64,000 nucleotides of DNA from Candidatus Bipolaricaulota bacterium (lineage in GTDB: Bacteria > Patescibacteriota > Patescibacteriia > UBA11705 > DATKZF01). Shown in pieces: positions 7,632 through 60,384 of the stretch (position 1 is the stretch's first letter; each line of letters begins with the position of its first letter). A program made the position numbers and the translations under genes. The notes below the pieces were generated by a model. The model saw nothing but the letters and a program-made list of their open reading frames with translations. It ran no database searches and was not told the origin of the DNA. Location of the stretch: contig DATKZF010000002.1 of NCBI GenBank assembly GCA_035528115.1, positions 69,751-133,750 on the forward strand. Reading direction: 5' to 3'.

Positions 7632-8168
7632 TAATTTTTAAAAAACAGCTAATAACGCCGCGGCGGCAACCGAGCTTGACAAATTTCGTCTTTTTTGCTA
7701 CTATAATCAACTCTGCGATAAATTCGCGGAATTGTTCATTAATATCGCTCCGCTAGGACGCACATTTGGGCGTTATTTCAAATAAAATCCAAACGTGTGC
7801 CCTAGAGGGGCAAAAGGCCCCCCTCGTGGGGGACGAATGCTATTAATTACTAACATCAACCCACAAGGTTGACGTTGGATTTAGCCTTCCCTCATGAGCG
7901 CACTATAAAAAGGACAACAAGACAAACAGGAAAAAAATAAGAAAAGAGAAAGAGAAGAAAGCAGTACAAAAGAAGAAAGAAACCCCAGACGGTCCAACCC
8001 GATGTTGAAAAAACCCATGCAACCCCACCCACCCATGCTTACCCCAAACCTTTTCAACATTACTCCCGTCCCGCCCCAACCCACCTTGTACCCGCTTCTC
8101 TCAACCTTTCTCACTCCTGACAATGCACCTATTGTCCTTTTTTCTTTTTAAACGTATTATTTATAATA

Positions 8169-8663: not shown

Positions 8664-9046
8664 GGGGATGATCGGCTTCGACGGGAGTCCTGAAATCAAA
8701 AGCGCGAAATGAGCTGTCAGCCGCTCATTAAACTGCTGGCAAATCCAATAAGTGCAACAAATGTACTGGCGAAAGTCAAAAGCTTATTTCAAGCTCCGGC
8801 TTTTGCTCCCGTTCTTGCCTAAAAGTGAGAACCGTCCGCTTGCCGATACTCGATGAGCAAACCGGACGTCAATATCGAGTTAGGCCGTCGCCATGCCAAA
8901 AGCGCCGACTGAAATAAAACGGCTCGGCCCGCTCGGAGTTTCGTTTATCTTTAATCCGGCGGTCTTAAATGATAAGATAAACTATTTTCGTAGATGCTTT
9001 TTATTTCAACTTCCAGACGCGGGTTCGATTCCCGCCATCTCCACCA
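8664..9046 (+). ncRNA. ssrA: tmRNA (SsrA)
   Basis: The 5' end GGGGATGATCGGCTTCGACGGG matches the canonical tmRNA 5' acceptor/D-arm consensus (GGGG..G.TTCGACGGG). The 3' end ACGCGGGTTCGATTCCCGCCATCTCCACCA is a tRNA-like T-arm plus acceptor with encoded CCA. The 5' GGGGATG pairs with 3' CATCTCC. It sits directly after smpB. The tag-peptide reading frame was not confidently identified. Confidence 0.85.
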
Positions 9047-11188: not shown

Positions 11189-11265
11189 GGATCGGTGGTG
11201 TAGCTGGTTAACACGCCGCCCTGTCACGGCGGAGATCGCGGGTTCGAGTCCCGTCCGATCCGCCA
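11189..11265 (+). tRNA. tRNA-Asp (anticodon GTC), CCA encoded
   Basis: Cloverleaf read by hand. The acceptor is GGATCGG/CCGATCC, with D-stem GTGT/ACAC. The anticodon stem is CCGCC/GGCGG with loop CTGTCAC (U33, GTC, A37). The T-arm is GCGGG-TTCGAGT-CCCGT, the discriminator is G, and CCA follows. It is flanked by the complementary ATTCAGGCTG / CAGCCTGAAT leader-trailer pairing. Confidence 0.88.
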
Positions 11266-13899: not shown

Positions 13900-14997
13900 T
13901 CATAACCAATGACTCAACAATTCGGAAAATGCCCGCTTGATTCTGGCGAAAAAACCTCTATTCTTCCAACGATACTTGGCGAACGGCTCGGAAAACTCCT
14001 GCCAGCCGTTCAATATTTTTTCGACATCGCCGACCATCTTCTTATCGCTGATGTACGCATTGGCTTCTCGGTTGCGATAAAAACTGCCCTGGTCGATATT
14101 GCTCGAGCCTACCATGGCTTCGCGGCCGTCAACCACGAAAGCTTTGCCATGCATCATTTTCGAAGTGAAATGAAGTTTGACGCCGATCTTGTCCATTAAT
14201 TCATAATATTTAATCGCCGTCCAATTAACGATTCGCAAATCAGTTCGAAACGGCAAAATCAAATCTATTTTCACTCCCCTCTTTCTGGCTCGAGAGATCG
14301 CTTTGATCAATTTTCTGTCAGGCAAATAATAAGGCACGGCCAATTTCAAATATTTTTTGGCGTGGTTGATCGAACGCAGAAAATTCGCTCGAATGCGGGA
14401 ACGTTTGGCATTGGGCACCTGAAAAAGAAATTTTATTTTTTTGCTTTTCTCTATTTTCGGATGGAGCAATTTTAAAACGTTCTTTTTATCTCCGCCGGCC
14501 TTGATATATGACTTGGCGAAAGCTCTGGTCAAAGACCTGGCCAATTTCCCCACCACCATCAATTGCAAATCCAGCCAATCGGCCATGAAATTCTGCACAT
14601 TAACGCCGCCGAGAAAGCCCTCATTGCTATCGACCACCAAAATCTTTCTATGCGTCCTCTCCCAAAAGGCTCGCCAAAATCGGATAAATTTACCCAACGT
14701 TACTTGATTGTAAATAACCAAATCAACGCCGGCATTTTTCAGCCGGGAGATCGATGAGTTTGAAAAACCGTAACTGCCTATGCCATCAATTAACAATTTC
14801 ACCTCCACTCCTTCTTTCGCCTTTTTTTCCAGCAAATCGACAAATTCAATCCCGACTTCATCGTCAATGAAAGTATACGTTTCCCAATAAATACTGGTCT
14901 TCGCCTTGTCCATCGCCTCTCGCATCGCTTGCCAAGCGTCTTTGGAAACGGAAAAAAACTGATATTGAATTTGCTCTTTAAGATGATTCATATGCAA
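13900..14997 (-). CDS. cls: Phospholipase D-family enzyme, cardiolipin synthase-like (two HKD motifs)
   Basis: 365 aa. HRKILVVDSNEGFLGGVNV and HGKAFVVDGREAMVGSSNID are the two HxK(x)4D(x)6GSxN motifs. Confidence 0.8.
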   Translation of the reverse strand: MHMNHLKEQIQYQFFSVSKDAWQAMREAMDKAKTSIYWETYTFIDDEVGIEFVDLLEKKAKEGVEVKLLIDGIGSYGFSNSSISRLKNAGVDLVIYNQVTLGKFIRFWRAFWERTHRKILVVDSNEGFLGGVNVQNFMADWLDLQLMVVGKLARSLTRAFAKSYIKAGGDKKNVLKLLHPKIEKSKKIKFLFQVPNAKRSRIRANFLRSINHAKKYLKLAVPYYLPDRKLIKAISRARKRGVKIDLILPFRTDLRIVNWTAIKYYELMDKIGVKLHFTSKMMHGKAFVVDGREAMVGSSNIDQGSFYRNREANAYISDKKMVGDVEKILNGWQEFSEPFAKYRWKNRGFFARIKRAFSELLSHWL

Positions 14998-15084
14998 TAT
15001 TTTAACACAAATGGCCGAAAATTAAAGAGCGCGGCCAAAACGGACATTTATCCACTTAACAACCACCCTTCGTTTTGATAACCT

Positions 15085-16614
15085 TTGTATGACCATATGA
15101 CCAAAAATTTCATTTCAATCGAAGATTTTAAGCTGGACGAGATTGAGGAGATTCTCGGCGAAGCGGAACAATTGATTCCATTCGCCAAAGCGAAAATCAC
15201 TCCGCCGAAAGAGCATCCTTTGCACCTTGACTTTGGCAACCATTTAGCCAAAGTTTTAATTTTCATGCTCGAACCGTCCAGCCGCACCGCCGGTTCCAAC
15301 GACGAAGCGGCCAGGCTCTGGGGATTTGCCAGAGACAAAATCAGCGGACTGGAAGCGACTTCGCTGATGAAAAAAGAAAGTTTGGCCGACGCCATCAGGA
15401 CTCACGCCGGCACCCAATTGGCCGACATTTTGGTTTTGAGAACGAAATACGAAGGCAGCGCCAGATTCGCCAGTGAAATTTTGGAAAAAACCGATTTTCA
15501 AGTGGCCGTGCACAATGCCGGCGACGGCGCCAATCGGCATCCGACCCAATCGCTGCTCAATCTGCTGACCATTAAACAAAAAATAGGAAGAATTCACGAT
15601 TTCACCATCGGATTTTTCGGGGATTTGAAATATTCGCGAACTCTCAATTCCGATCTGGACACGCTCAGGATGTTAAACGAGCGATACGGAAACATTAAAA
15701 TCATCACCGTCTCGTCCGCGGAAAACAGAATACCAAGCTACCGAAAAGCCGGATTAAACATCGAAGAATATGATCACTTGGACGCCCTAAAAAAATGCAA
15801 TATCATCAGCGGCACCAGGATACAAGAAGAGCGATACACCGATGAATTGGAAAAATCCAGAGTTCTCGGCAAATATATTTTGGACAAAGCGGTTTTGGAT
15901 CAAATGGCCGCGGATGTTGTGATTATGCATCCCGGACCGCGAGGGCCGGAAATAGCGCCGGACATTTCCATTGATCGCAGAAACGTCATGTGGTTTCAGA
16001 TGTTCATGGGCGTGGTTTTGCGCATGACCATTTTGCGCCGCAGCTTTTTGGCGCGCCACGAGCCGAATCTGGGATTTCAGAACACTTGCGGCAGACTGGA
16101 AGTACTCGACGAAGAACCGGCCGAACAAAGATTGAGAAAAAGAGAGGAACAAGGCAAACAAGACAAATATTTCAGACCGATATACAAAAGAGGCATGATC
16201 TTGGATCACATTGAACCGGGCAAAGGCGGCTTTATCAAAGAACTGATTAAAAAACACGCCGGTCTCAACGGCACGGGCGCCATTCATTTGATCGAAGGCA
16301 TTGAAAACAGAAAGGACGTCATCGTCATCGAGGGCAATTTCATCCCCGACTGGTTTTTCAGCCCGGCGACTTTCGTCAGTCCGACAACGACCTTCAACAT
16401 AATCAGAGACGGCCTATTCAAAAAAGTCAAAATAAAAACCGCGAACACCACCATGCCCAAAGCGTTCAAATGCCCCAATTCGGTGTGCATCACCAACGCG
16501 GACAAAGAAGCTCAATCCAGATTCACGGTCGGAGAAAATGAAATAACCTGCGTGTGTTCTTATTGCAATCGCGAATTCACTCAAGAAGAGATTATCGCGG
16601 CCACCTCGAAATAA
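15085..16614 (+). CDS. pyrBI: Aspartate carbamoyltransferase with catalytic (PyrB) and regulatory (PyrI) chains fused in one polypeptide
   Basis: N-terminal roughly 320 aa: SSRT (carbamoyl-phosphate site), HPTQ and HPGP motifs of the ATCase/OTCase fold. C-terminal roughly 150 aa: PyrI-like allosteric domain (GMILDHIEPGKG) and Zn domain (CPNSVC...CVCSYCNREF). Confidence 0.7.
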   Translation: MYDHMTKNFISIEDFKLDEIEEILGEAEQLIPFAKAKITPPKEHPLHLDFGNHLAKVLIFMLEPSSRTAGSNDEAARLWGFARDKISGLEATSLMKKESLADAIRTHAGTQLADILVLRTKYEGSARFASEILEKTDFQVAVHNAGDGANRHPTQSLLNLLTIKQKIGRIHDFTIGFFGDLKYSRTLNSDLDTLRMLNERYGNIKIITVSSAENRIPSYRKAGLNIEEYDHLDALKKCNIISGTRIQEERYTDELEKSRVLGKYILDKAVLDQMAADVVIMHPGPRGPEIAPDISIDRRNVMWFQMFMGVVLRMTILRRSFLARHEPNLGFQNTCGRLEVLDEEPAEQRLRKREEQGKQDKYFRPIYKRGMILDHIEPGKGGFIKELIKKHAGLNGTGAIHLIEGIENRKDVIVIEGNFIPDWFFSPATFVSPTTTFNIIRDGLFKKVKIKTANTTMPKAFKCPNSVCITNADKEAQSRFTVGENEITCVCSYCNREFTQEEIIAATSK

Positions 16615-16675
16615 TGAATTGCGAGGCTTGCGTATTTTTTTGTTTGTTGATATAATGGAATTCGTAACTATTCAT

Positions 16676-16810
16676 AAAACCAATAACAAGGCTGGCCATG
16701 CGGCCGTAAATATTCGTCATCCATAAAATTATATTTGTAACCATTTGTAATATAATTAATAACGCCAATAACCAAGGCTGGCCATGCGGCCGTAAATATT
16801 CGTAATGTAT
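16676..16810 (+). repeat. Two copies (period about 92 bp) of the motif AATAAC(C)AAGGCTGGCCATGCGGCCGTAAATATTCGT, ending at the rpmE start codon
   Basis: Direct reading shows ccaataacaaggctggccatgcggccgtaaatattcgt at about 16677 and gccaataaccaaggctggccatgcggccgtaaatattcgtaat at about 16767. It carries an internal GGCC-ATGC-GGCC hairpin. It belongs to the same family as the repeats upstream of rplK. Confidence 0.7.
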
Positions 16811-17081
16811 GAAGAAAGACATTCATCCGACATATTATAAAGACGCCAAAGTTACATGCGCTTGCGGTAACAGTTTTGTGACGGGCTCAAGCGAAAAAGA
16901 AATCAAAACCGAGCTTTGCTCCATGTGCCATCCGTTTTTTACGGGCAAACAAAAAATCATGGATACGGCGCGGCGAGTGGAAAAATTCAAAGACCGCCTG
17001 GCCAAAAAGACCACAACTGGCTCGAAAAAGAAAACCGTAAAAAGGAAAGTCAAAGATCAGAAGAAAAAAACCAAAAAGTAG
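16809..17081 (+). CDS. rpmE: 50S ribosomal protein L31 with Lys-rich C-terminal extension
   Basis: [10 protein letters not shown]...VTCACGNSF...[24 protein letters not shown] is the L31 core. The roughly 25-aa [25 protein letters not shown] tail is additional. Confidence 0.88.
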
Positions 17082-30030: not shown

Positions 30031-30171
30031 TTTCGAAAACCGGCGCAAGCCGGTTTTTTTATATATCGACAAAGACTATAATCTCGATTTGTTTATAGCT
30101 CTGAATCTCTCAATAAGTATTTAAAAACTCTCACACAACATAGCTATGCGAGAGTTTGAACTCTTAAGAGA

Positions 30172-31464
30172 TCAAAATCTCTTACTCTTTGGTTTAATCG
30201 ACTGCACGCCAGTGTATGCATGCAGGACATCGGGAATGAGCACTGACCCGTCAGCCTGCTGGTTATTCTCAAGAATGGCAAGAACCACGCGAGTAATTGC
30301 GACCGCCGTTCCGTTGAGTGTGTGTACGAATTCATTTTTGCCAGTTGCGCTATTCCTGAACTTGATGTTCAGTCGACGCGCCTGGAAATCCGTACAGTTT
30401 GATGCGGAGGTTATTTCGCCATACCCGCCTCCCTCGCCGATGCAGGGCATCCACGCTTCGATATCATACTTCCGGTAAGCAGGGGTTCCCAGCTCCCCCA
30501 TACACATAAGCAACACGCGGTAGGGAATCTTCAGATCCTGGCAAAACTCTTCCTCTATCGAAAGTATCTCTTCATGAGCGGCTGCACTCTTCGAGGGATG
30601 CACAAATTGATAGAGCTCCACCTTGCTGAACTGATGCACGCGGTAAAGCCCCCTGCTCTCGCGTCCTCCGCTGCCAGCTTCGGTCCTGAAGCAATGGCTA
30701 ACACCCGCGACCTTGATTGGCAGATCTTCTTCCGAAATCACGGCATCCGCCATGTAACCACCAATGGTGATTTCGGAAGTCCCGATGAGACTCATTCCCC
30801 CTTCAGTCAATGAATAGATCTGACTCTCTGGTCCCCGAGGAGAGAACCCTGAAGCGGTGATAATCTCGTCTCGAACAAGTTCTGGCGTCGTCATTGGAAC
30901 GAAGTCATACTTGAGCGCAAGCTCAAGCGCGTAACGGATGAGCCCCAACTCCAAGAGCACTGCCTCGTTCTTAAAAAAGTAGAACTTGGAGCCAGCGACT
31001 TTCCCCGCAGCCTCAAAGTCCAGGATATCCAGACTCCTGCCGAGTTCGATATGATCGAGCGGCCTGAAGCCGAATTTAGTAGTCTCTCCGACGAATCTGA
31101 TAGCGACGTTGCCTTTCTCGTCCTTACCTTGCGGCACATCCGAAGCAGCAAGGTTCGGGATTTTCCTTGCCTCCCCAAGATACTCCTTCTCGACAACCGC
31201 GATTTCCTGCTTGAGGGAAGCTATGGTTTTCTTGAGATTAGCAACCTCCAACTTGAGCCTTTCTTGAGTTGCACCATCGGCACTCTTGAACTGCCCGGAG
31301 ATCTGATTAGATCGGTGCAAAGCCTCTTCGAGACTCCGCCTCTTCTGTTTTGTTTGCTCGTAGAGAGCAACAACCTGGTCGACGTCAGCCTTGGCATAAC
31401 GCTCCTGCGTATTCTGCCTCACCAAATCGATGTTTCTGAGAATGAATCTAATGTCCAACATCAT
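30172..31464 (-). CDS. serS: Seryl-tRNA synthetase (full length, with N-terminal coiled-coil arm); composition is more GC-rich than the core genome
   Basis: 430 aa. Class II motifs are present: FRTEAGSGGRESRGLYRVHQFSKVE (motif 2) and GGGYGEITSASNCTDFQARRL (motif 3). AAGGAG lies 5-8 nt upstream of the ATG. Confidence 0.9.
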   Translation of the reverse strand: MMLDIRFILRNIDLVRQNTQERYAKADVDQVVALYEQTKQKRRSLEEALHRSNQISGQFKSADGATQERLKLEVANLKKTIASLKQEIAVVEKEYLGEARKIPNLAASDVPQGKDEKGNVAIRFVGETTKFGFRPLDHIELGRSLDILDFEAAGKVAGSKFYFFKNEAVLLELGLIRYALELALKYDFVPMTTPELVRDEIITASGFSPRGPESQIYSLTEGGMSLIGTSEITIGGYMADAVISEEDLPIKVAGVSHCFRTEAGSGGRESRGLYRVHQFSKVELYQFVHPSKSAAAHEEILSIEEEFCQDLKIPYRVLLMCMGELGTPAYRKYDIEAWMPCIGEGGGYGEITSASNCTDFQARRLNIKFRNSATGKNEFVHTLNGTAVAITRVVLAILENNQQADGSVLIPDVLHAYTGVQSIKPKSKRF

Positions 31465-31591
31465 CTATCTCCTTGGTATCGTTGGTGCCCGGAACGGACA
31501 TCTGACGAAAATATATATTAATAGTAATTAACTGTTTTGTCAACAAATTTCTATTTCATAATTGTAATCATAATATAAAACAGAGCTGCGG

Positions 31592-32938
31592 TTGACGATA
31601 ATTTATAAATATTATACGTTGCATTACACCATCATAGTTAGTACATTAACAAAAATCCACCATTGGGAGATAGACCAAATGGATAAGGAAAACGTACATA
31701 TTTTCTCGGCAGGAACACCCTGTATCGATGATGCGGAATTTGAAGTAGTAGAACGTAAAGGAATCGGCCATCCAGACACGCTCTGCGACACAATCGCTGA
31801 AAAGGTATCTCAAGCGTATGCTCAGTATTCTCTGGAACGCTATGGCATCATCTTGCGGCACATGGTTGATAAAATCGCACTGTCAGGAGGGGCTGCGAAG
31901 GTCAAATTCGGCGGCGGTGAAATGAATGAGCCAATCAGGCTTTATCTAAATTGTCGCTTCACCAGGAGATACCAAGAAGAAACAATCCCGTATCTGGAGA
32001 TTGTCAAAAGCACAGTATACAACCATCTCAAAGCTGTGCTTCCATTACTGGATCTTGATCGGTGGCTCATGATTGTTGACAATACTCACTTTTCTCCAGG
32101 TCCTGGCGTTGTCTACGAAGCTGACGGATCAACGCAAAACGAACGTCAGTTTTTCTTCGAGATCCCGCAGAAAGAATTTGCCATATTTCACGACAACAGC
32201 CTTCGTGCCAACGACACATCCACGGCTGTCGCATATAGCCCTCTTAGCACTACGGAAAAGATAGTAATATTAATCGAAACAACATTAAATGGATCGGAAT
32301 TCAAAAAACGACATCCCTATGTGGGTACAGACATTAAAGTCATGGCTAGACGCATAAAAAAACGCATAGCCATTACGGTTTGCATTCCTTTTGTTGCTAT
32401 CTACACGCCAACCAAAGAATTCTATACCGAAAAACTCAGATTACTGCAAGATGTGATCAGACAACTGGTAATCTCAAGTTTCGGGCAGTTAGATGTTACT
32501 GTCTCGCTCAACACGAGGGATAATCCGAGCAAATCAGATTATTACCTCACCCTAACAGGGAGCGCAATCGAAAGCGGTGACGAAGGAGTGGTTGGGCGAG
32601 GAAACCGGTACAATGGGGTCATTCCCTTTACCAGGCACATGAGCATGGAGGCTTGCTGTGGCAAAAACCCTGTCTACCACGTAGGCAAGGTGTACACGGC
32701 AATCTGCTCCCTTATCTCCGAGGAAATCTTCAAGCTCATAGGGATTGAGGTGTACGTCTACCTCACTTCACAAATGGGTAGAAGTCTATCAGATCCATGG
32801 TTGGCCTGTGTTGAGGTCTGCGGTGGAAACGTAACTTCTGTTCAACGCCAAATGATTGAAGCAATCATCGAGAGCAACCTCGCCAGTGCCAACGAAGTTA
32901 CTAAAAAGATCGTTAACGGAGAACTCAATTTATACTGA
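31592..32938 (+). CDS. Archaeal-type S-adenosylmethionine synthetase (MAT); likely start at the ATG at 31679
   Basis: FEVVERKGIGHPDTLCDTIAEKVSQAY matches the archaeal MAT N-terminus (VERKGLGHPDSICDGIAE in Methanocaldococcus), not bacterial MetK (SEGHPDK). GDEGVVGRGNRYNGVI matches the archaeal GRGNR motif. Confidence 0.7.
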   Translation: MTIIYKYYTLHYTIIVSTLTKIHHWEIDQMDKENVHIFSAGTPCIDDAEFEVVERKGIGHPDTLCDTIAEKVSQAYAQYSLERYGIILRHMVDKIALSGGAAKVKFGGGEMNEPIRLYLNCRFTRRYQEETIPYLEIVKSTVYNHLKAVLPLLDLDRWLMIVDNTHFSPGPGVVYEADGSTQNERQFFFEIPQKEFAIFHDNSLRANDTSTAVAYSPLSTTEKIVILIETTLNGSEFKKRHPYVGTDIKVMARRIKKRIAITVCIPFVAIYTPTKEFYTEKLRLLQDVIRQLVISSFGQLDVTVSLNTRDNPSKSDYYLTLTGSAIESGDEGVVGRGNRYNGVIPFTRHMSMEACCGKNPVYHVGKVYTAICSLISEEIFKLIGIEVYVYLTSQMGRSLSDPWLACVEVCGGNVTSVQRQMIEAIIESNLASANEVTKKIVNGELNLY

Positions 32939-32980
32939 AAATTGCAACTTTCGCGCCTGTGTCACAGATACGGGCTCTTT

Positions 32981-33676
32981 TTATAGATTAAATAATCCTC
33001 CTGAACTAATATCTGTCTTTACCCCAGTGGCAGAATATATCGTACAGAATCGCTCTCCAATACATGATGCGACATTATTTTCTATAATCATACCTGCTCC
33101 TTCAGACAAACATACAATAGGCAAATTGTTATTCATTGCCCATGATTTAAAACGATTGTTCTGATTATTCTTAAAATGACATGCGACAGAAAAATCATGT
33201 AAAAGGTTTAATCCTGCATTATCTTGTAATCCTATCTTATTTTTGTCATCTTGAGTATCAATTCTTTTCCCCAAAATAATTGCTCCTGCACTTCCTCCAT
33301 ATACTTGCCCTCCTGATTTATAGTATTTAATCAATGCGTCAGCAAAACCTGAGTTTTTGAGTTCATCCATTAAATCCCACGTATTACCTCCGCCTATATA
33401 AATGCCGTTAAAATTTATTAAATAATTAAATTTATATTTAGAAGGATCATCAATTACCTCAAACTGAATATCATCTCTCTCATGAAGTTTAATAACGCTA
33501 TTCATCCACAAGCGCACTGTGAGATAAATCTTAGAATCACGAAGAGCAATTGGCACATATAAAAAACGCCCATTTACAGGCAATGTGCTAAAAAAAAATT
33601 TGTCAAGGAGGAATGATTGTTTCTCATTGCCACCCCCCGACAAATATATTCGGTTTTTCTCCTTTATTTTTTGCAT
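32981..33676 (-). CDS. Peptidase family S51 protein (PepE / cyanophycinase-like dipeptidase)
   Basis: The N-terminus has a YLSGGGNE motif, and the central YIGGGNTWDL and GGSAGAIILG motifs match the S51 Ser-nucleophile context. The stop overlaps the start of the next gene by 13 nt. Confidence 0.55.
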   Translation of the reverse strand: MQKIKEKNRIYLSGGGNEKQSFLLDKFFFSTLPVNGRFLYVPIALRDSKIYLTVRLWMNSVIKLHERDDIQFEVIDDPSKYKFNYLINFNGIYIGGGNTWDLMDELKNSGFADALIKYYKSGGQVYGGSAGAIILGKRIDTQDDKNKIGLQDNAGLNLLHDFSVACHFKNNQNNRFKSWAMNNNLPIVCLSEGAGMIIENNVASCIGERFCTIYSATGVKTDISSGGLFNL

Positions 33677-34851
33677 GTTTGTATCGCTCTACGTAGCTCG
33701 CAAATGTTGATTTTATGAGCATACACCAAGCGATTAAAATAGTCTTCCGTCGTTTCGTCGCGAGGTTGCGGCAGATTTAGCTTCTTGCAAACCCTCAGGT
33801 TAATGAACCTTTCAATTTCCAGCCGTGCCAACTGAACGGCGGATTCTCTAGAAACGAACGGGGTAAGGAACTGACCCCAGTAATCGAAATAGTACAACAG
33901 GATACGGAATAGATTCTTGTCAAAATACTTCTCACTGAGCATTTTGGCGATACGTCTGAACTGAAGACCAGGCCCCTTGTTTGTCGCTTGTACCCCACAC
34001 AATACGATGAGTGACAACGTTCGGTACAAGTCGAACATTTCCCTTGCCCCATCTGATGTCCCAGGAATCAACAAATCGAAGTAAGAATCGGTCTTATTTA
34101 TTGCCCAGGCAATTCTCTCAAGACCAAACCCAACATCGCTAATGGGAATCGACGCTCGATTTGCTTGAGGTATCTGCATGTAAGCAGCGTCCCCAAGCTC
34201 AAGTCCTCCATAAGAGAAAAAAAGCTCCAGCGCGGAAAACTGGCCCGTTCCCCAATCATTGGCAGATGTTCTCATGACAACGATGAAATCATTCATGTGA
34301 AGGCCAAGCCTTGATAGCATCGTGCACCAGCAATCTACTATCTGCAAATGCTCGTCAAGGGTGGCTCCCATCTTCTCGGTACACACATTTACAAAAGAAG
34401 TGGAAGTCCCGTTTTGTGACTCGACATATGGCTGAAATTGCATGCGTACACAGGGCTGGGAGACGAATAGCTTACATTCCCGTGTCTGCTGACCTTTATG
34501 TATGACGTCGTCAAACATCTGCACACCAGCCACCACAAGGTCGGTTTGCCCCTCTAAATTTGCTATCTTTAGAGGAGGAGACAGTTTGAAGCCGGACGAA
34601 ACAAAGTACTCTCTCATCATTGCATTGATTTTTGCAGGGGGCAGCATTTTCTTTCGCTTTGAGAAATTAAGAAAAGCTAATACCCTCTTATCGCACTGAT
34701 GCCAACCGCAGCTTGAGGTCTCTATCTTGGCTAAACGCTTAAAGAAAAAAGTCCTCCCACAACCTTCGCAAGCACGGACTTGCCACCCTCTTTTCACCAT
34801 GAATTCGCTTACGACACCAGCAAGATCACAGGTCTTCATCTTTTCAGACAT
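33664..34851 (-). CDS. Stand-alone alanyl-tRNA-synthetase catalytic-domain paralogue with N-terminal Zn-ribbon-like CxxC/C..C segment
   Basis: SQPCVRMQ aligns with AlaRS QKC(I)RAG, and TSFVNVCTEKMGA with HHTFFEMLGN. FGLERIAWAIN aligns with the AlaRS GLERI motif. The protein is only 395 aa, with no tRNA-binding, editing or C-Ala domains. The N-terminus has CEGCG and a separated CGWHQC pair. Confidence 0.55.
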   Translation of the reverse strand: MSEKMKTCDLAGVVSEFMVKRGWQVRACEGCGRTFFFKRLAKIETSSCGWHQCDKRVLAFLNFSKRKKMLPPAKINAMMREYFVSSGFKLSPPLKIANLEGQTDLVVAGVQMFDDVIHKGQQTRECKLFVSQPCVRMQFQPYVESQNGTSTSFVNVCTEKMGATLDEHLQIVDCWCTMLSRLGLHMNDFIVVMRTSANDWGTGQFSALELFFSYGGLELGDAAYMQIPQANRASIPISDVGFGLERIAWAINKTDSYFDLLIPGTSDGAREMFDLYRTLSLIVLCGVQATNKGPGLQFRRIAKMLSEKYFDKNLFRILLYYFDYWGQFLTPFVSRESAVQLARLEIERFINLRVCKKLNLPQPRDETTEDYFNRLVYAHKINICELRRAIQTCKK

Positions 34852-35027
34852 GGATAAATCTCCAGTTATAATTTTAATGTACTACCAATATAATTTAACG
34901 ACAATTAGCGATTTTGTCAAACGCCACTTTTCCACTTTGCCTTCAGCGATTAATTTGCTAAAATTATACTGCCGATAAAACAGAAAGCCGCCCTTTCTGT
35001 TTCTCTATCTATTCACCATAAAAACAT

Positions 35028-35858
35028 ATGACTCAATTCGACCGACTCTATCGCGACGGGATTTTAAAAATAATGAACGAAGGCTTTGAAGAGTACAACG
35101 AGCGCACCGGACACAGCTGCAAAATCATTCCGGGCCTGACTTTTGAACTCGACAACGGCTTCCCTCTTTTGACTTTAAGAAAAATTCCCATCAAAATTTT
35201 CGTGGCCGAACAAATCTGGTTTATCATGGGCTCGAAAAACCCGGACGACTACGTCAATAAATTCACTCAAATCTGGAAAGACTTCACCGAAGAAGACGGC
35301 ACTATTCCGGCCGCTTACGGCTATCGCTGGCGAAAAGCTTTCGGCAGGGATCAATTGAAATTGTTGATTGAACATTTGGCCGGCCAGCCGGGCTCTCGGC
35401 ACGGCGTGATCATCACTTGGGATCCGCGAGAAGACGGCCTGGGCAATCCGGAAAGTAAAAAAAACGTGCCCTGTCCCTACACTTTCACGGTCAACATCAT
35501 CGGCAATAAATTGCATATCCACAGCGTGGTCAGATCAAACGACATGATGCTGGGCTGTCCGCATGACGTGGCCGGCTTTGGAGTTTTGCAAGCCATTTTG
35601 GCGGCCAAGCTGGGCGTCAAACCCGGCAAACTCACCCACACCATCAGCAACGCGCACATTTACGACACGCATTATCGGCAAGCCTGGGAATTGGTCGAGA
35701 GAGAAAACAACCATCCCAATATCTATCTAGAGGCTCAACCCGATTATTTCGATCGCGCGGAAAAAGGAGACGAATCCTTGGTGGCTGAAATCGCGGGCAA
35801 ATTGGAAGCGCAATATAATCCGCTGGGACCGATTAAAGGAATGAAAATTGTTTTATAA
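35028..35858 (+). CDS. thyA: Thymidylate synthase (ThyA-type)
   Basis: 276 aa. The ThyA fold is recognised around RHGVIITWDPREDG and the catalytic Cys context (VPCPYTFTVNIIGNKLHIHSVVRSNDMMLGCPHDVAGF). Confidence 0.8.
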   Translation: MTQFDRLYRDGILKIMNEGFEEYNERTGHSCKIIPGLTFELDNGFPLLTLRKIPIKIFVAEQIWFIMGSKNPDDYVNKFTQIWKDFTEEDGTIPAAYGYRWRKAFGRDQLKLLIEHLAGQPGSRHGVIITWDPREDGLGNPESKKNVPCPYTFTVNIIGNKLHIHSVVRSNDMMLGCPHDVAGFGVLQAILAAKLGVKPGKLTHTISNAHIYDTHYRQAWELVERENNHPNIYLEAQPDYFDRAEKGDESLVAEIAGKLEAQYNPLGPIKGMKIVL

Positions 35859-35879
35859 AGAAAATAGTCGGCATGGCAT

Positions 35880-36070
35880 AAAGTTGTGTTACGAATTACA
35901 AGAAACTAATAAGCTTACAGGTTATCTGTTACGAATTACAAGATTCTGTTTAGCTTTTAGGTGATTTGTTACGAATTACAATATTCTTAGGCATAAAGCT
36001 ATAGGTTCATGTACTTCGTAACAATACAAACTAAGAGCTATTTAGTGAATGTAATTCGTAACAAATCCTC
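35880..36070. repeat. Cluster of short dispersed repeats of the TTGTAATTCGTAAC / GTTACGAATTACAA word family (4 copies) between thyA and folA
   Basis: gttacgaattacaagaaac, ctgttacgaattacaagattc, gatttgttacgaattacaatattc and gaatgtaattcgtaacaaatcc are read directly. The same word recurs at 28571-28640, 38735-38920 and, in degenerate form, at 39630-39720 and 40560-40597. Confidence 0.7.
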
Positions 36071-36079
36071 ATTGAATAT

Positions 36080-36595
36080 ATGAACATAACACTAATGATG
36101 GCCATCACGGCTGATGGAAAAATCGCCAAAGACGAATCGCATTTGGCTGACTGGACGTCCGTCGAAGACAAAAAACTTTTCGTTGAAAAAACCAAAGAGG
36201 CCGGCGTAATTATCATGGGCCGAAAAACTTTTGAAACCATTGGCAAACCTCTGCCGGGCAGATTGAATTTGGTCATTACTTCTCAAGCCAAGGAAAAACA
36301 AGGCCAAGCCATTCCCGGCTCACTGGAATTCACGGATCTATCGCCCAAAGAAATAATCGAAGAATTGAAAAACAAAGGATTTAAAAATGCGATTCTCGGC
36401 GGCGGCGCGGCGATCAATTCCCTTTTCCTTGAACAAAACCTGATTGATGAAATAATGTTGACGGTCGAGCCGAAAATTTTCGGTAGCGGACTGAATCTAT
36501 TCAACAACGTAAAAACCGATTTGAATTTGCGGCTTTTGGAAATAAAAAAAATAAACGAAAACGCGGTGAATTTGCATTATCAAGTCATAAAATAA
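36080..36595 (+). CDS. folA: Dihydrofolate reductase
   Basis: 171 aa. MMAITADGKIAKDESHLADW...LFVEKTKEAGVIIMGRKTFETIG...LNLVIT follows the DHFR pattern. Confidence 0.82.
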   Translation: MNITLMMAITADGKIAKDESHLADWTSVEDKKLFVEKTKEAGVIIMGRKTFETIGKPLPGRLNLVITSQAKEKQGQAIPGSLEFTDLSPKEIIEELKNKGFKNAILGGGAAINSLFLEQNLIDEIMLTVEPKIFGSGLNLFNNVKTDLNLRLLEIKKINENAVNLHYQVIK

Positions 36596-36602
36596 TAACA
36601 AT

Positions 36603-37259
36603 ATGCTGCTCGACAAAAAAACATTGCTCGATTTGCTCAAAGAAAACAAAATTACCTTCGAACCGAACCTCGATGGTTTTCAGATTCAACCCAATTCAAT
36701 CGATCTTCGGCTCGGCCATTCGTTTTACATTCCGGTTTCTTGGAAATTAAATGAACAAGGCCGGGTGGCCATGTCAGCCGATTACCTTGATTACCACGCG
36801 CCGCAGGATAAACTGCAATTGATCAAATTAAAACCCGGACAATATTTCGAAATTTTACCGCATGAATTCATCATGATTTCCACTTTGGAAAAAATCAGTT
36901 TGAATAACGACAATATCGTGGGCAACCTGCAGCCTCGAAGCACGGCCCTAAGACGCGGTTTGCAAATCACGGGCGGCGCGGTCGATGTTCATTACAGCGG
37001 ACATTTGATCATTCCCATGGTCAATAACACCAACCACATTTTAAGGCTTTATCCGGGCGAGCGCATTTGCCAATTGCAGTTTTTCGAATTAAAGTCGCCG
37101 CTCAGCGTCGAAGAAGCCAAAAAGCACGGTCTGCAAGACGCCAAATACAATGAAGCCACTCCTTACGGTCTGGAAGCCAAGTCCGACAGCCAGGAAGAAA
37201 TCGACTTGATCAAGGCGGGCAAAATCGACGAGCTGAAAAGCAAATATCAAAATCTATGA
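36603..37259 (+). CDS. dcd: dCTP deaminase (dUTPase-superfamily)
   Basis: 218 aa. The PNSIDLRLG motif is present, and ...GGAVDVHYSGHLIIPMVN... belongs to the dCTP deaminase/dUTPase fold. Confidence 0.7.
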   Translation: MLLDKKTLLDLLKENKITFEPNLDGFQIQPNSIDLRLGHSFYIPVSWKLNEQGRVAMSADYLDYHAPQDKLQLIKLKPGQYFEILPHEFIMISTLEKISLNNDNIVGNLQPRSTALRRGLQITGGAVDVHYSGHLIIPMVNNTNHILRLYPGERICQLQFFELKSPLSVEEAKKHGLQDAKYNEATPYGLEAKSDSQEEIDLIKAGKIDELKSKYQNL

Positions 37260-37738
37260 GCGATTCAATAGTTTATCCTTATCTGCCCGAAGGCAAGAAA
37301 ATCCTTTATGTTCCCGAGAACAATATTTTTATTCGCGCGGCTCAAGAAATTCGAGACAATGATTCCACTGACTTGATGAATCCCACCGGCGCCGTCATTG
37401 TCAAAAATGAAACCGTAATTTATCGCTCGGCGAATAAAGCCAAGCTTGAAAACCCGACTTTGCTTAAACTTCATTCAAAATACTGCGTGAGAAGAATTTT
37501 AAGAATTCCCAGCGGCAAAGGCTATTTTCTCTGCCCTGGCTGCGCCGACCACAAACAGCACGCGGAATTCCGCGCTGTATCGCAAGCGATTAAAGAAGGG
37601 CTGGACGTTCTCGACGCGGATCTATATTTGTATGGGCATTGGTGGTGTTGCGAGTCTTGCTGGAATAAAATGATTGAGCACGGCATTAAAGACGTATATC
37701 TTTTGGAAAACGCTCACGCGATTTTCGCCAGAAAATAA
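37256..37738 (+). CDS. dCMP deaminase (ComEB/cytidine-deoxycytidylate deaminase zinc-binding family)
   Basis: The HAEFRAV (HAE) and CPGCADH (PCxxC) zinc-binding motifs are present. The start overlaps the dcd stop by 4 nt. Confidence 0.72.
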   Translation: MSDSIVYPYLPEGKKILYVPENNIFIRAAQEIRDNDSTDLMNPTGAVIVKNETVIYRSANKAKLENPTLLKLHSKYCVRRILRIPSGKGYFLCPGCADHKQHAEFRAVSQAIKEGLDVLDADLYLYGHWWCCESCWNKMIEHGIKDVYLLENAHAIFARK

Positions 37739-37754
37739 TAATCAATATCATCTT

Positions 37755-38324
37755 ATGAACAAAATAATTTTCGGTTTTGTCGGCGAAATCGCCAGCGGCA
37801 AAGGCACGGCTTGCGATTATTTGATCAATAAATACGCGGCCGGTTATCATCGCTACTCCACTATTTTAAGAGACATAACGGATCGTTTGTATTTGGAACA
37901 AAGCCGCGAAAACCTGCAGGACCTGTCAACCATTTTAAGAAACCGCTTCGGACAGGATTTGTTCGCTCAGGTCATGGCCAAAGAAGTCGAGGACGATCCG
38001 GCGGAAATAATCTGCGTGGACGGCATCAGGCGGCCCGATGACATTATTCATTTGAAACAATTGCCCGGGTTTATTCTGGTCAGTATCGTTGCGGACATGA
38101 AAACGCGCCATAAAAGAATCGTGGAACGCGCGGAAAACACGGATGACCAAATCAAAACATTTGAAGAATTCAAAAAAGACCATGAGAACGAAAATGAGAA
38201 AAGCATTCGCGTTGTCGCGCAAGACGCCAAAGAAAAAATAGACAACAACGGCTCTCATGACAAACTGTTCGAGCAAATCGACAGCTTGGTGGAAAAATAT
38301 GAAGATAAAAATAAGCAGAATTGA
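37755..38324 (+). CDS. P-loop nucleoside/nucleotide kinase (dNK/CoaE-like)
   Basis: The Walker A motif is GFVGEIASGKGT. It is about 190 aa and sits inside a dNTP-metabolism operon. Start placed at the internal ATG at 37755. Confidence 0.5.
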   Translation: MNKIIFGFVGEIASGKGTACDYLINKYAAGYHRYSTILRDITDRLYLEQSRENLQDLSTILRNRFGQDLFAQVMAKEVEDDPAEIICVDGIRRPDDIIHLKQLPGFILVSIVADMKTRHKRIVERAENTDDQIKTFEEFKKDHENENEKSIRVVAQDAKEKIDNNGSHDKLFEQIDSLVEKYEDKNKQN

Positions 38325-38998: not shown

Positions 38999-39421
38999 CT
39001 AGCCGATCGCCGAAATCGGCTCGCGGTCGTCGCAGATGGCCTCGACCGCGCGGGAGATTGCCCACGCCCACAACGCGGCATAGGCAGGCAGGATAAGGTG
39101 CCGGAAACCCTGGCGATCGCGAATCGGCTGCGGCTCATCCAGATTGTGATTGACAGAAACCACCAACAGCGGGATCTCCTGCCTGATCGCCGCCTGGTGA
39201 ATCTCCAAGACGAGCGGCGTGAGCATTCGATGCTCCCGCCCCCATTCCGCGAGGATGACGAGATCGACTCCCGGAGGCAAATTGATGCCTCCATTGTCGA
39301 GCTGAGCTCGCAGCTCCCGCTCGTCAATGTAGTCGAAATCTTCCTTCAGACACTCTCGACACCATGCTTGCGCGCTTCCGGCCGCGGCCCGATTGTATCC
39401 AATCACCAACACATTCGGCAT
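38999..39421 (-). CDS. GC-rich orphan hypothetical protein with alternating beta-alpha (flavodoxin/Rossmann-like) pattern
   Basis: 140 aa. VLVIGYN...DLVILAEWG...PLLVVSV hydrophobic strands alternate with helices. A G-rich RBS lies upstream. A bidirectional terminator hairpin sits at 38941-38975 (AGAGCCAAGTCTGACCTGGCTCT). Confidence 0.4.
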   Translation of the reverse strand: MPNVLVIGYNRAAAGSAQAWCRECLKEDFDYIDERELRAQLDNGGINLPPGVDLVILAEWGREHRMLTPLVLEIHQAAIRQEIPLLVVSVNHNLDEPQPIRDRQGFRHLILPAYAALWAWAISRAVEAICDDREPISAIG

Positions 39422-42298: not shown

Positions 42299-43012
42299 CT
42301 AGTACGGGTAGCAGGCGCCATCGTTGTCGCAGTACGTGCCGGTCGGACAGTCGTTGTCCGATCCGCAGGTGGCAGGCCGAGGCTCGGGCGCGCTCTGGTA
42401 ACAGAGCCCGTCCGAGGAGCAGAAGGTTCCGACCGGACAGTCGCTGGCCGACTGGCAGCCGGTCCGCGTGAGCGGGACACAGCTACCATCCGCGGCGCAG
42501 AAGTTGCCGACCGGGCAGTCGTAGTCCGAGATGCAACCGGCCTGCATCGCATAGCAGGCACCGTCAGCACCGCAGTAGAAACCGATATGACAGTCGGCAT
42601 CCACGCGGCAGCCTCCGACCGGACCGTCTTCGACCACGACCGCGACTTGCGAGACGCTGCAATAGCCGTCCCAGTCGCAGAACATGTCGGACCGGCAGTC
42701 CCAGTCGCTGGCACAGGGGTACAACCACTCACAGTAGTTGACCCCCGGGACAGCCATCGGCTGACAGTACATGTTGAACGGACAATCATCGTCCGTCCAA
42801 CAACCACCGTCTGTCGCGACCGCCTCGTCCACGTAGCCGGGCTCGCCGATGCAGGTGTTTCCCACATCGGTGCCGGTGCAGACCGTCCCGTACGGACAGT
42901 CGTAGTCGCTGTAGCACTGATCGTCGATCGGCTCGTGGTAGCCGACCGAGCCGAAGCAGCCGTTGAAGAAAGCGCACAGGACGCACAACGCCGCAAACAT
43001 CATGCTTTTCAT
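42299..43012 (-). CDS. Secreted cysteine-rich repeat protein with about 8 tandem DxDCPxGxxC(x)2-4DG(x)C modules; GC-rich
   Basis: The start is at the internal ATG at 43012, preceded by GGGGAG. The signal peptide is MKSMMFAALCVLCAFFNGCFG. Repeats such as SDYDCPYGTVCTG, TDDDCPFNMYCQP, SDWDCRSDMFCDWDGYC, VDADCHIGFYCGADGAC, SDYDCPVGNFCAADGSC, SASDCPVGTFCSSDGLC and SDNDCPTGTYCDNDGAC are read directly. Confidence 0.6.
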   Translation of the reverse strand: MKSMMFAALCVLCAFFNGCFGSVGYHEPIDDQCYSDYDCPYGTVCTGTDVGNTCIGEPGYVDEAVATDGGCWTDDDCPFNMYCQPMAVPGVNYCEWLYPCASDWDCRSDMFCDWDGYCSVSQVAVVVEDGPVGGCRVDADCHIGFYCGADGACYAMQAGCISDYDCPVGNFCAADGSCVPLTRTGCQSASDCPVGTFCSSDGLCYQSAPEPRPATCGSDNDCPTGTYCDNDGACYPY

Positions 43013-43196
43013 GATCTCTCCCCTTTTCTTTTCCCGCCTTGGCGGGATTTTGAAGTTCTTGCAATTCCAGTAAATCATTATATTATATCATATTTAATCA
43101 AAAAAGTCAATGATTGTAGTCTTTTTTTATCTAATTTTGGATAAAAAAAGCGAAATGCAAACATTCCGCAAACAAATAGAAATGGATAATGTATTA

Positions 43197-54141: not shown

Positions 54142-55236
54142 CTAGTCGACGTCTGCCGCGGGGAATGCCCCGGACAAGAAGTTCTCGGACTCGGCCGCCT
54201 TGGCCAGGTCCTGCTCGATCAACTTCGCCCAGAGCTCGACGACCGTGAGCGGGAGCTCGAAGATGAACCGGTCGCCGCGCGCGACCATGATCTCCTCGAG
54301 CAGGCCGAGATCATCCGAATTGCCCAGCAATCCGACGGCTGTGACCGGGGTCGGGTCGCCGAAGACCGCCTTGATCTTCTCGCCGCGAATGAAGACGCCC
54401 GGAGCCACTTCGTAGCCGGGCCAGGTGTCCGTCGCCGCGGTCTGGTAGAACTGCTCGACGACCGCCCAGAAACCCTCTTCCTCGCGGAAGTACTGCTCAA
54501 CCGTCTTGAAGAAACGGCTGAGCAATCCCGGCATGAAGCGCTGGAGCAGCTGCTCCTTCGAGCAGAGCGCCTCGGACGCGGCTCCGAGCATGTGCACGTC
54601 GAGGGGGAGCAAGTGCGCGAGCTCGGGGTACTTCTCGAACACCGGCCGGAACCCGGCCGCGAGTTCGGAAGCGCTCAAGCCGAACGCCTTGTCGCCGAGC
54701 GGACCGGACTGCCGCACTTCCGTTTCCTTGAGGAAGAAGCATGGCCCGTTCAGAACCTCGAAGATGGGGTGGCCGAGCCACTCCTCCCCTGCCTTCTCGT
54801 GCAGGTAGCCGGACAGCCGAGGCAGGCCGGCCTTGATGAAGTCGGTGATCGCCGCCTCCACGCGGGCGAAGAACGCCCGCGTGCCGCCGTCGTAATGCGC
54901 TAGCAGCTGCCGGCGCCGCCACGCCTTGCGCACGTCCACTGCATGCGTTCCGCGCTCCTGCGGATCCTGCTCGCTCGAGACCTCCAGCATGCGTAGGGGA
55001 GTAGCCGCCGCCTTCTTCTCCGCCTTGGCCGCGCTGGGCGGCACGTCGATCTGGAACACCTTCGGCTCTGACTTCGGCCGAGCCTCTGGAGGAACATCGG
55101 TCTGAAAGCCGTTGCCCGCCGGTGCCGCCGCCGAGTCGAGCCGGACAGTATTCGGTCCCGGCGTGAAATGCACCGCCGGATCCACGGTCGTGCCCGGCTC
55201 CGAAAAAGAAACGCCCTTGCCCTTCTTGTCCGTCAT
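54142..55236 (-). CDS. GC-rich orphan hypothetical protein (364 aa), Ala/Pro-rich N-terminal region
   Basis: AGGAGG lies 6 nt upstream of the ATG. It is much more GC-rich than the flanks. No family recognised. Confidence 0.45.
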   Translation of the reverse strand: MTDKKGKGVSFSEPGTTVDPAVHFTPGPNTVRLDSAAAPAGNGFQTDVPPEARPKSEPKVFQIDVPPSAAKAEKKAAATPLRMLEVSSEQDPQERGTHAVDVRKAWRRRQLLAHYDGGTRAFFARVEAAITDFIKAGLPRLSGYLHEKAGEEWLGHPIFEVLNGPCFFLKETEVRQSGPLGDKAFGLSASELAAGFRPVFEKYPELAHLLPLDVHMLGAASEALCSKEQLLQRFMPGLLSRFFKTVEQYFREEEGFWAVVEQFYQTAATDTWPGYEVAPGVFIRGEKIKAVFGDPTPVTAVGLLGNSDDLGLLEEIMVARGDRFIFELPLTVVELWAKLIEQDLAKAAESENFLSGAFPAADVD

Positions 55237-57032: not shown

Positions 57033-57040
57033 AATATATT

Positions 57041-60063: not shown

Positions 60064-60066
60064 GAA

Positions 60067-60384
60067 CTAATAGTGAAACTTTAGCACTCTCCCTTTTCTC
60101 AGCAAAAAGCATAGCTTAAATAGATTCGCTACTTTTAACTGACGAATTGTTTTTTTAGAACAAGTAACTAAGTCGATGTGTATGTAAGAATTTTCGGGCC
60201 AGACATGTACAGCAATATGGCTTTCCTCTAATATAAAAACGATTGAACTGCCTTGAGGATGAAATCCATGAACTGTTTTTTTTACAATATGCAAACCTAA
60301 TAGAGAAACAAACATCTCTATTCTGGACATAAGTTCTCTTTTTTTAAAAATATTGGGATCATCGCCAAAACCTTCTAGCACCAT
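60067..60384 (-). CDS. speH: S-adenosylmethionine decarboxylase proenzyme (pyruvoyl-dependent, small bacterial/archaeal SpeH/SpeD type)
   Basis: 105 aa. FILEESHIAVHVWPE matches the self-processing E|S site and HTWPE signature of class-1 AdoMetDC. Confidence 0.78.
   Translation of the reverse strand: MVLEGFGDDPNIFKKRELMSRIEMFVSLLGLHIVKKTVHGFHPQGSSIVFILEESHIAVHVWPENSYIHIDLVTCSKKTIRQLKVANLFKLCFLLRKGRVLKFHY

Follow-up and report, generated by a model that had tools for sequence, protein, structure and literature searches.

Genes at the locus

The window, by which we mean the whole stretch of 64,000 nucleotides analysed here (GenBank assembly GCA_035528115.1, contig DATKZF010000002.1, positions 69,751 to 133,750 of the forward strand), carries an island of four genes between the host genes rplA and thyA, and one of the four encodes an archaeal-type methionine adenosyltransferase (MAT), the enzyme type that makes S-adenosylmethionine (SAM). 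The host is a Parcubacteria-type bacterium of the Candidate Phyla Radiation (CPR), and its genome of 1,026,340 bases in 3 contigs was scored 100% complete and 0.5% contaminated. Very probably this intact archaeal-type MAT gene, the sole one in the genome, entered between rplA and thyA as part of a mobile four-gene cassette, three genes of which form an invariant trio across CPR bacteria. The island and its genes, numbered from the first letter of the window, are the following.

30059..35027, no strand: inserted island, four codon-atypical genes between rplA and thyA (codon-usage ranks; empty site in the relative G007)
30172..31464, minus strand: SerRS2, a second full-length seryl-tRNA synthetase (430 aa; PF00587 and PF02403; TIGR00414)
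31679..32938, plus strand: archaeal-type MAT (419 aa; PF01941, 359 bits; PDB 6s81, E 7.5e-76)
32981..33676, minus strand: S51-family (PepE/cyanophycinase-like) serine hydrolase (231 aa; PF03575, 77.2 bits against a cut-off of 23.9)
33664..34851, minus strand: truncated AlaRS-like protein of archaeal type (395 aa; Cys4 element, class II core, helical domain)

An archaeal-type MAT with a divergent substrate side

The initial annotation had read the gene as an archaeal-type MAT and not a bacterial MetK, and the profile searches bear this out. In a Pfam profile scan the protein hit both halves of PF01941 (archaeal AdoMet_Synthase), scoring 359 bits where the cut-off is 27 (E 3.7e-107), and no bacterial MetK family was listed for it at E <= 0.01. 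The nearest solved structures are all archaeal (6s81 at 7.5e-76, 4l4q, 7p83/7p82, 4hpv and 4ws9), and the solved archaeal MATs align over the full length with E values of 1e-59 to 1e-76. Both motif strings quoted earlier are present in the open reading frame (ORF) found by six-frame translation, which runs as described from a TTG at 31592 to 32938 on the plus strand and would encode 448 aa. That homology begins at the ATG at 31679 and not at the upstream TTG is likewise confirmed. Most of the 120 listed close homologues are exactly 419 aa long, with alignments beginning at residue 1, and we therefore take this ATG as the true start; a GGGAG Shine-Dalgarno-like sequence lies just 5' of it.

Against the five NCBIfam models of the PRK04439 group the protein reached 304-329 bits, below the cut-off in every case (435-577; best score 329.3 bits against 553). 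By these scores the MAT would represent a divergent sub-clade of the archaeal-type family and fall short of orthologue level. The window protein and 28 further cassette-clade sequences were then compared with 135 other full-length family representatives. At 57 positions the 135 non-cassette members are at least 85% conserved, and the cassette MATs retain 56 of these, the lone change being G92C. Among the retained positions are GHPD, D64-K65, N178-D179, D218/K220, GRGN and Y289, the adenine-stacking Tyr equivalent to Pf Y268. The reading frame has neither a frameshift nor an internal stop, so that none of the signs of error named in the initial annotation (a better score to bacterial MetK, a frameshift, missing catalytic residues) was seen. 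The gene is intact and, from its conserved residues, looks catalytically competent.

The clade-specific changes of the cassette MATs appear to lie on the substrate side. Residue 60 is Arg in 29 of 29 cassette sequences, and among the others (n=135) it is His in 107, Asn in 24 and Arg in 2. R60 sits where H58 of MjMAT and H59 of PfMAT stand, a mapping on which both PDB alignments agree; this His coordinates the carboxylate of methionine (landmarks from PMC9298006). M366 takes the position of I351 in MjMAT (I366M), and M62 (N62M) and C92 (G92C) are also specific to the cassette clade. The gating-loop region, residues 129-176, is longer than in other members and nearly invariant inside the clade, and the cassette MATs carry an insertion of roughly 10 residues relative to other archaeal-type MATs. 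Identity of the window MAT to its non-cassette relatives is 33-47%. The closest known enzymes, the archaeal MATs (MJ1208; solved PfMAT 6s81, TkMAT 4l4q, MjMAT 7p83 and SsMAT 4hpv), share with it full-length homology and 56 of 57 conserved positions, whereas R60 in place of the carboxylate-binding His, M62, C92 and M366, the insertion, the bacterial host and the mobile cassette set it apart from them.

The only MAT of a small genome

A lateral acquisition as the sole MAT of a reduced genome was one of two options raised for this gene, and the genome content agrees with it. Bacterial MetK was judged on the domains PF02773 and PF02772 (PF00438 was not searched genome-wide), and these gave 0 matches in the genome, while the same searches were positive in 10 of 14 control genomes. 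PF01941 has the window MAT as its only match genome-wide. The window MAT is therefore the only MAT of this 1.03 Mb genome, which can presumably make its own SAM as a side effect of carrying the cassette.

The further statement that MAT is normally a single-copy essential gene does not hold in this lineage. Among 40 relatives (G001-G040, most of them at least 90% complete), PF01941 was found in one (G017) and bacterial MetK in 11, G017 included, which leaves 29 with neither type. These 29 would need to import SAM or to use a synthesis route that has not been recognised.

The partners of the MAT gene

The neighbouring genes had been noted before without being recognised for what they encode, namely SerRS2, the S51 hydrolase and the truncated AlaRS-like protein. 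SerRS2 scores 457.9 bits against TIGR00414 (serS), well above the equivalog-level cut-off of 301.65, and possesses the N-terminal tRNA-binding arm PF02403. The housekeeping SerRS of the same genome is encoded at G000:C1:141736-142986 and is 35% identical to it.

The nearest solved structure to the S51 protein is PDB 3l4e (E 1.5e-7). Across 15 sequences Ser129 (in YGGSAGA) and His167 are invariant and E193/E199 at least 90% conserved. The family thus has a Ser-His-acid triad, in which either E193 or E199 would be the acid. PepE aspartyl dipeptidase and cyanophycinase share with it PF03575, the Ser, the His and the acidic residue, but the score against the PepE equivalog is about 48 bits with a cut-off of 156, and the cassette gene differs in being translationally coupled to an aminoacyl-tRNA synthetase (aaRS)-like gene. 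The stop of the AlaRS-like gene overlaps the start of the S51 gene by 13 nt in the window and by 19 nt in G017.

The AlaRS-like protein has no Pfam family above cut-off, PF01411 not being listed, and it scores 30 bits against the canonical AlaRS model TIGR03683 (cut-off 744.7) and 17 bits against TIGR00344 (cut-off 457). The canonical AlaRS of the same genome lies on contig C1 (476 bits), so that both aaRS-type genes of the cassette are extra copies. The protein aligns to residues 11-270 of the Archaeoglobus fulgidus AlaRS (PDB 2ztg/3wqy, E 6e-5 to 1e-4). With its AlphaFold2 model (pLDDT 83.4, pTM 0.83), Foldseek returned the N-terminal parts of archaeal AlaRS at the top (2ztg E 1.5e-14; 3wqy TMq 0.71; TMq 0.68-0.71), followed at lower ranks by bacterial AlaRS catalytic fragments and GlyRS-alpha. 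On this model the protein is predicted to cover the catalytic and tRNA-recognition domains only. In 19 sequences C28/C31/C48/C53, Q132-P133, R136, D239, G241 and FGLER246 are invariant, and with them motif 2 (QP-x-x-R) and motif 3 (S-D-x-G-F-G-L-E-R). Since every motif of the catalytic core is invariant, the protein is more probably an enzyme than a relic.

In all, 200 members of this family could be detected; among the 120 listed, none carries a Pfam domain and few are named, as 'hypothetical protein'. No fused or longer forms were found, which is weak evidence. Structural neighbours in the ESM Atlas are stand-alone 'hypothetical' clusters of 331-392 aa, commonest in Actinomycetota, together with archaeal AlaRS, and we take them as a lead only. 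No relatives were found in viral_contigs or PLSDB plasmids. Among the cassette proteins the sole strong PHROG match is the SerRS, and none of the four matched a PADLOC defence family.

A second stand-alone ORF of 379 aa is present in the same genome at G000:C3:9288-10427 (L030 1372..2511, plus strand), with a PF01411 score of 17 bits, below cut-off, and no Pfam match as a protein. It lies just downstream of ORFs for a class I SAM-methyltransferase and an HD-domain protein at the codon-atypical start of contig C3.

Insertion between rplA and thyA

The gene rplA ends at 30030, and the host side is closed by a hairpin:

30035..30058, plus strand: terminator-like hairpin and T-run after the host secE-nusG-rplK-rplA block, the left host boundary (10-pair stem, 5 GC pairs)

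The four consecutive genes that follow at 30172..34851 (4.7 kb) rank at 0.01-0.02 of the 864 ORFs of the genome for codon-usage fit, while the flanking genes are codon-typical (rplA rank 0.85, thyA rank 0.78), which gives the island sharp edges in codon usage. The compositional island described earlier thus stands for codon usage and falls for GC content: a GC island was ruled out, the MAT gene having a GC of 0.455 (rank 0.65).

G007, a relative of the same order (L038), has a gap of 691 nt between rplA and thyA, compared with 4,997 nt in the window, and its gene order matches that of the window (nusG-rplK-rplA-thyA-folA-dcd-dCMP deaminase-kinase). The outer synteny is also retained in three more relatives, two of the same family and one of the same order, and none of the four cassette genes had a match in the regions downstream of rplA in the four relatives. 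The rplA-thyA junction of G007 is the empty site of the island. Together with the codon usage and the contrast between cassette and housekeeping identities described below, this supports the lateral acquisition that the initial annotation had raised as a possibility.

The region downstream of rplA looks like a variable hot spot. In L036, L037 and L039 (G001, G002 and G004) the stretch from rplA to the conserved kinase/orf158/orf214/orf512 block is different in each relative, and thyA-folA-dcd was found only in G007 and the window among the relatives compared there. The deoxynucleotide block of the window (35028-38324) consists of thyA, a DHFR/RibD_C-type reductase, a dCTP deaminase, a dCMP deaminase and a small kinase-like ORF. 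Its codon usage is normal, and the ThyA of G007 is 83% identical, compared with 62% for RplA.

The cassette in other CPR genomes

A scan of species-representative genomes returned 20 cassette loci beyond the window, hence 21 in total. The loci are labelled Paceibacteria/Paceibacterota, Parcubacteria, Kaiser-, Taylor-, Nomura-, Yanofsky- and Giovannonibacteria, and five are labelled Saccharibacteria (third-party assemblies with unverified labels). The S51 gene follows MAT convergently in 19 of 19 loci whose sequence runs past MAT, L015 and L019 ending at MAT; the AlaRS-like gene follows S51 in 18 of 18 loci, with 2 partial at contig ends, L011 ending within S51. Across CPR genomes these three genes form a unit that does not vary, with MAT on the plus strand and S51 and the AlaRS-like gene on the minus strand, and SerRS2 often accompanies it.

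SerRS2 copies 74-81% identical to that of the window stand beside the cassette in 10 other loci (11 of 21 with the window), in four positions and orientations: it may precede MAT on either strand, follow the AlaRS-like gene or lie at a distance of a few kb. Since it is found in such different arrangements, its linkage appears to be kept through rearrangement. The second option raised for the gene, that of a dedicated SAM supplier for its neighbours, is also favoured, the same neighbours being syntenic in 20 other loci.

Flanking genes are almost never common to different cassette loci. Identity to the window copies is 74-81% for SerRS2 and 61-85% for MAT, in contrast to 39-55% for the housekeeping SerRS of the 20 genomes, and the identities of all four proteins to the window copies drop in parallel from locus to locus. 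The MAT tree has 68 rows, with the outgroup subsampled to 54 of 135 eligible representatives; L024 (internal stop) and L013, L015, L017, L019, L025, L027 and L028 (partial, gapped or truncated MAT) were left out. In this tree the cassette MATs form a clade with an SH-aLRT of 100, a stem of 0.75 and internal branches of 0.03-0.25, the median end branch of the family being 1.08. Among the outgroups, of which 20 proteins were looked up, one clade is Thermoplasmatota (P0150) and one row Pseudonocardiaceae (P0124), the sister being P0122.

A large serine recombinase adjoins the cassette in three loci (L013, L021 and L024), and decay is seen in three: in L024 a stop interrupts MAT, and both S51 and the AlaRS-like gene are frameshifted, L027 has only MAT residues 290-419 left with the three other genes intact, and the MAT of L028 is truncated and frameshifted. 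Taken together, these results show the cassette to be an accessory module passed laterally between CPR bacteria. An apparently split MAT in L025 was rejected as a case of decay, since the break is a stretch of 30 Ns.

Of the 20 other cassette genomes 5 have a bacterial MetK, compared with 11 of the 40 relatives, and the cassette MAT is the only MAT type in the remaining 15; the completeness of these 20 genomes was not reported. As the MetK frequency equals the background, the cassette does not seem to be preferentially kept where MetK is missing. One genome occurs in both sets, G017 being the same as G052 (identical MetK coordinates); it belongs to the order of the window genome and carries the cassette locus L020.

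Two side observations concern single loci. L013 looks like an integrative element carrying the cassette: an exact inverted duplication of 157 nt of the promoter-leader (7841-8000 and 14692-14851), upstream of MAT and of SerRS2, brackets the cassette, and the duplicated leader is followed by the large serine recombinase (14907-16796) and a tRNA gene (16778-16859). In two of the 21 loci the immediate neighbour of the cassette is a HAD-family hydrolase (L011:1964-2620 and L023:11591-12202), which could be an occasional fifth component.

Promoters, terminators and shared leaders

Three regulatory features were predicted within the island of the window:

31515..31543, minus strand: sigma-70-like promoter of SerRS2 (TTGACA, 17 nt spacer, TAATAT; 10/12 matches)
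34892..34920, minus strand: sigma-70-like promoter of the AlaRS-like/S51 operon (TTGACA, 17 nt spacer, TAAATT; 10/12 matches)
32955..32975, plus strand: terminator-like hairpin and T-run just 3' of the MAT stop, between the convergent MAT and S51 genes (sequence read)

The region has 12 promoter-like sites, with 9.6 +/- 3.0 expected from shuffling, so that the predicted promoters rest mainly on their position. Homology between the upstream regions of SerRS2 and the AlaRS-like gene was found within several loci, namely 90% over 131 nt in L012, 83% over 88 nt in L014 and 91% over 33 nt in L025; the window has a weaker version of it (74% over 34 nt). In L013 it is the upstream regions of MAT and SerRS2 that are identical, over 157 nt. 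A 34-nt repeat ending TTTTGTCAA was considered as an operator and rejected, being explained by two similar near-consensus sigma-70 promoters on the minus strand. A short leader motif, built as our own pattern, fits 7 of 16 MAT leaders and 3 of 13 AlaRS-like leaders and is too loose to claim. No known RNA element (Rfam) was found in the island or the shared leaders at E <= 1.

Proposed function and alternative explanations

We infer that the cassette works as one unit and not as plain housekeeping. It may be a joint aminoacyl-nucleoside-like module, because its parts list matches the modules for ascamycin and albomycin. In this proposal the product of MAT, either SAM (through its free alpha-amino group) or a closely related sulfonium adenosine, would serve as adenosyl acceptor or co-substrate. 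To this product the AlaRS-like enzyme would join Ser, Ala or Gly, using aminoacyl-tRNA as the source or activating the small amino acid by itself, and S51 would cleave the aminoacyl amide so made, for immunity or processing. SerRS2 would supply Ser-tRNA, serve as an insensitive target copy, or both. The statement as a whole, a lateral cassette with the sole MAT plus a mechanism of the aminoacyl-nucleoside type, we put tentatively at a probability of about 0.4.

The nature of the product is speculative. The cassette MAT, with its changes on the substrate side, might not make ordinary SAM. In its most specific form, which we hold to be rather doubtful, the proposal is a mobile CPR pathway to an aminoacylated adenosyl-sulfonium mimic of aminoacyl-adenylates, with a remodelled MAT (H60R, I366M, loop), a new family of AlaRS-like transferases or ligases, and SerRS2 and S51 for self-protection.

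According to a review covering ascamycin of Streptomyces (PMC12945691), AcmD is an extra AlaRS that gives Ala-tRNA and self-resistance. AcmF, a truncated AlaRS-like protein, transfers the aminoacyl group from aminoacyl-tRNA to the amine of an adenosine sulfamate and also takes Ser- and Gly-tRNA, and the hydrolase AcmE takes the alanyl group off again (PMC12945691). Compared by these descriptions, the two systems share an extra full-length aaRS, a truncated AlaRS-like protein confined to an aminoacylation and a tRNA-recognition domain, a hydrolase and, in the proposal, an adenosine-derived acceptor. They differ in that the cassette hydrolase has an S51 fold with no signal peptide noted, whereas AcmE is a secreted alpha/beta-hydrolase, and in that the acceptor would come from MAT and not from a sulfamate pathway.

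For albomycin, AbmK is described as a second, resistant SerRS that protects the producer and supplies the seryl donor, and AbmF as an aaRS-like condensing enzyme that acts on a nucleoside amine and is fed by AbmK (review, PMC9032320). By description, the likeness lies in a second, divergent SerRS located together with an aaRS-like enzyme. In contrast to that cluster, the cassette is without thiosugar, siderophore and radical-SAM genes, and its host is a CPR bacterium.

Several points weigh against the aminoacyl-nucleoside proposal. The mechanism is drawn from an analogy of parts, and the analogy is imperfect: the extra aaRS of the cassette is a SerRS beside an AlaRS-like protein, while ascamycin has a matched AlaRS pair. 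AcmF is reported to lack most residues for ATP and alanine activation (N219Q, D232E; PMC12945691), whereas the cassette protein keeps the Asp and Gly of the DxG element (D239, G241) and the arginines of motifs 2 and 3. Because these activation residues are kept, the AlaRS-like protein may instead be a self-activating ligase or a tRNA-charging enzyme. R136, D239, G241 and R246 are invariant, so that under the presumed equivalence to AcmF and Escherichia coli numbering the D-to-E change of AcmF is absent; when aligned by HMMER to the A. fulgidus AlaRS, the motif-2 loop that follows R136 is divergent. Beside the cassette in the 21 loci there is no recurring exporter or tailoring enzyme, and MAT is the sole recurring gene that could make an acceptor. 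SerRS2 is absent from L022, L024 and L026, which are fully flanked (8 kb) and whose genomes have a single SerRS match each, and in L027 the three genes that are intact beside a truncated MAT may not depend on the cassette MAT. The conservation of the MAT at 56 of 57 positions and its standing as the only MAT of the window genome and of 15 of 20 others also make a plain SAM-supply benefit possible.

This last point leads to the alternative that fares best, a plain housekeeping gain in which MAT is the SAM synthetase of the cell and its neighbours are useful passengers (a spare SerRS, a dipeptidase releasing amino acids, a spare minimal AlaRS). We regard it as possible though on balance unlikely. 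The lineage would otherwise have to import SAM, with 29 of 40 relatives lacking any MAT, so that synthesis de novo would be a real gain, and the sole status and conservation of the MAT fit this as well. There is also a precedent in Geobacter and Desulfuromonas, where an archaeal-type MAT is a second isozyme (Rodionov et al. 2004, PMC545781). The likeness to that case is a bacterium with a PF01941-type MAT, and 5 of 20 cassette genomes also have MetK; the difference is that the window MAT is the only MAT of its genome and tied to aaRS paralogues. Unrelated passengers, however, would not hold the invariant order MAT-S51-AlaRS-like in 18-19 loci of differing context, nor would they keep SerRS2 linked, common promoter-leaders or overlapping frames. 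A SAM-supply benefit also fits poorly with a MetK frequency in cassette genomes that equals the background, and with the truncation of MAT in L027 and L028, genomes in which no MetK was detected.

A further alternative is a resistance island against adenylate-mimic or SAM-pathway toxins from hosts or competitors, which would combine an insensitive SerRS2, a minimal AlaRS core and a divergent MAT with a hydrolase of aminoacyl-nucleotide mimics. MccF cleaves such a mimic, microcin C. All four proteins handle amino acid and adenosine chemistry, and the module is mobile, accessory and sometimes decaying. A divergent duplicate aaRS is moreover a classic resistance mechanism, with AbmK/SerRS2 and the mupirocin, borrelidin and agrocin 84 cases as examples (PMC9032320). 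We nevertheless consider a resistance island unlikely: the PADLOC search gave no defence match to the four proteins, a 395-aa AlaRS fragment without editing and C-terminal domains would be an odd substitute for the canonical AlaRS of 476 bits, and nothing points to MAT as a toxin target here.

The targets could also be macromolecules. The AlaRS-like protein and SerRS2 would then charge or modify a tRNA or a protein, as the aaRS paralogue EpmA/PoxA acylates elongation factor P, or an editing-free AlaRS would alter decoding under stress, with MAT loosely coupled. The helical domain in the predicted fold resembles that for tRNA recognition in AlaRS, the activation motifs are kept, and SerRS2 is complete and canonical. 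This explanation is very unlikely in our view, given that it leaves the invariant linkage to MAT and S51 unexplained and that neither a tRNA gene in or beside the window cassette nor an Rfam element in the island was found. Finally, archaeal contamination, a chimeric assembly or a pseudogene, to which the atypical codon usage and the archaeal affinity of MAT and the AlaRS-like protein might point, can be practically dismissed. The island has bacterial housekeeping genes on both sides within a contig of 138 kb, the genome of 3 contigs scores 100% for completeness and 0.5% for contamination, and the same cassette is found on 20 other CPR-labelled contigs of up to 516 kb. The genes also have unbroken frames and conserved active-site residues.

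The prevailing view of CPR bacteria is that they depend on borrowed metabolites. A mobile cassette that joins SAM synthesis with two aaRS-type genes and a hydrolase means that even the supply of a core cofactor is traded laterally among them. If the likeness to ascamycin and albomycin holds, minimal cells would carry an aminoacyl-nucleoside chemistry so far known from actinomycetes, which would bear on how episymbionts compete with or manipulate their hosts. A pathway to a SAM-derived mimic would, if true, be the first small-molecule weapon or effector module based on aaRS paralogues in ultra-small episymbionts. Of practical interest are a mesophilic archaeal-type MAT with a substrate pocket that its sequence suggests to be remodelled and a stand-alone AlaRS-like enzyme without a Pfam family. 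Our literature search, which did not extend to supplementary gene-family tables, found no account of the cassette or of an archaeal-type MAT in CPR bacteria. Some CPR copies of the MAT are already labelled 'methionine adenosyltransferase' in databases; the cassette, the AlaRS-like family and their pairing with a dedicated MAT in CPR genomes appear to be undescribed.

Other features of the window

The only tRNA-like genes of the window are a tmRNA (8664-9046) and a tRNA-Asp(GTC) (11189-11265), neither of them near the cassette. ORFs with a GC of 0.58-0.67 occur at 1-3663, 38999-39421, 42299-43078, 54142-55236 and 62345-64000, and a five-gene block at 56013-60852 has a GC of 0.32-0.36, the genome mean being 0.44. 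Judged by these GC-deviant ORFs, the window is a mosaic in which further segments are probably foreign.

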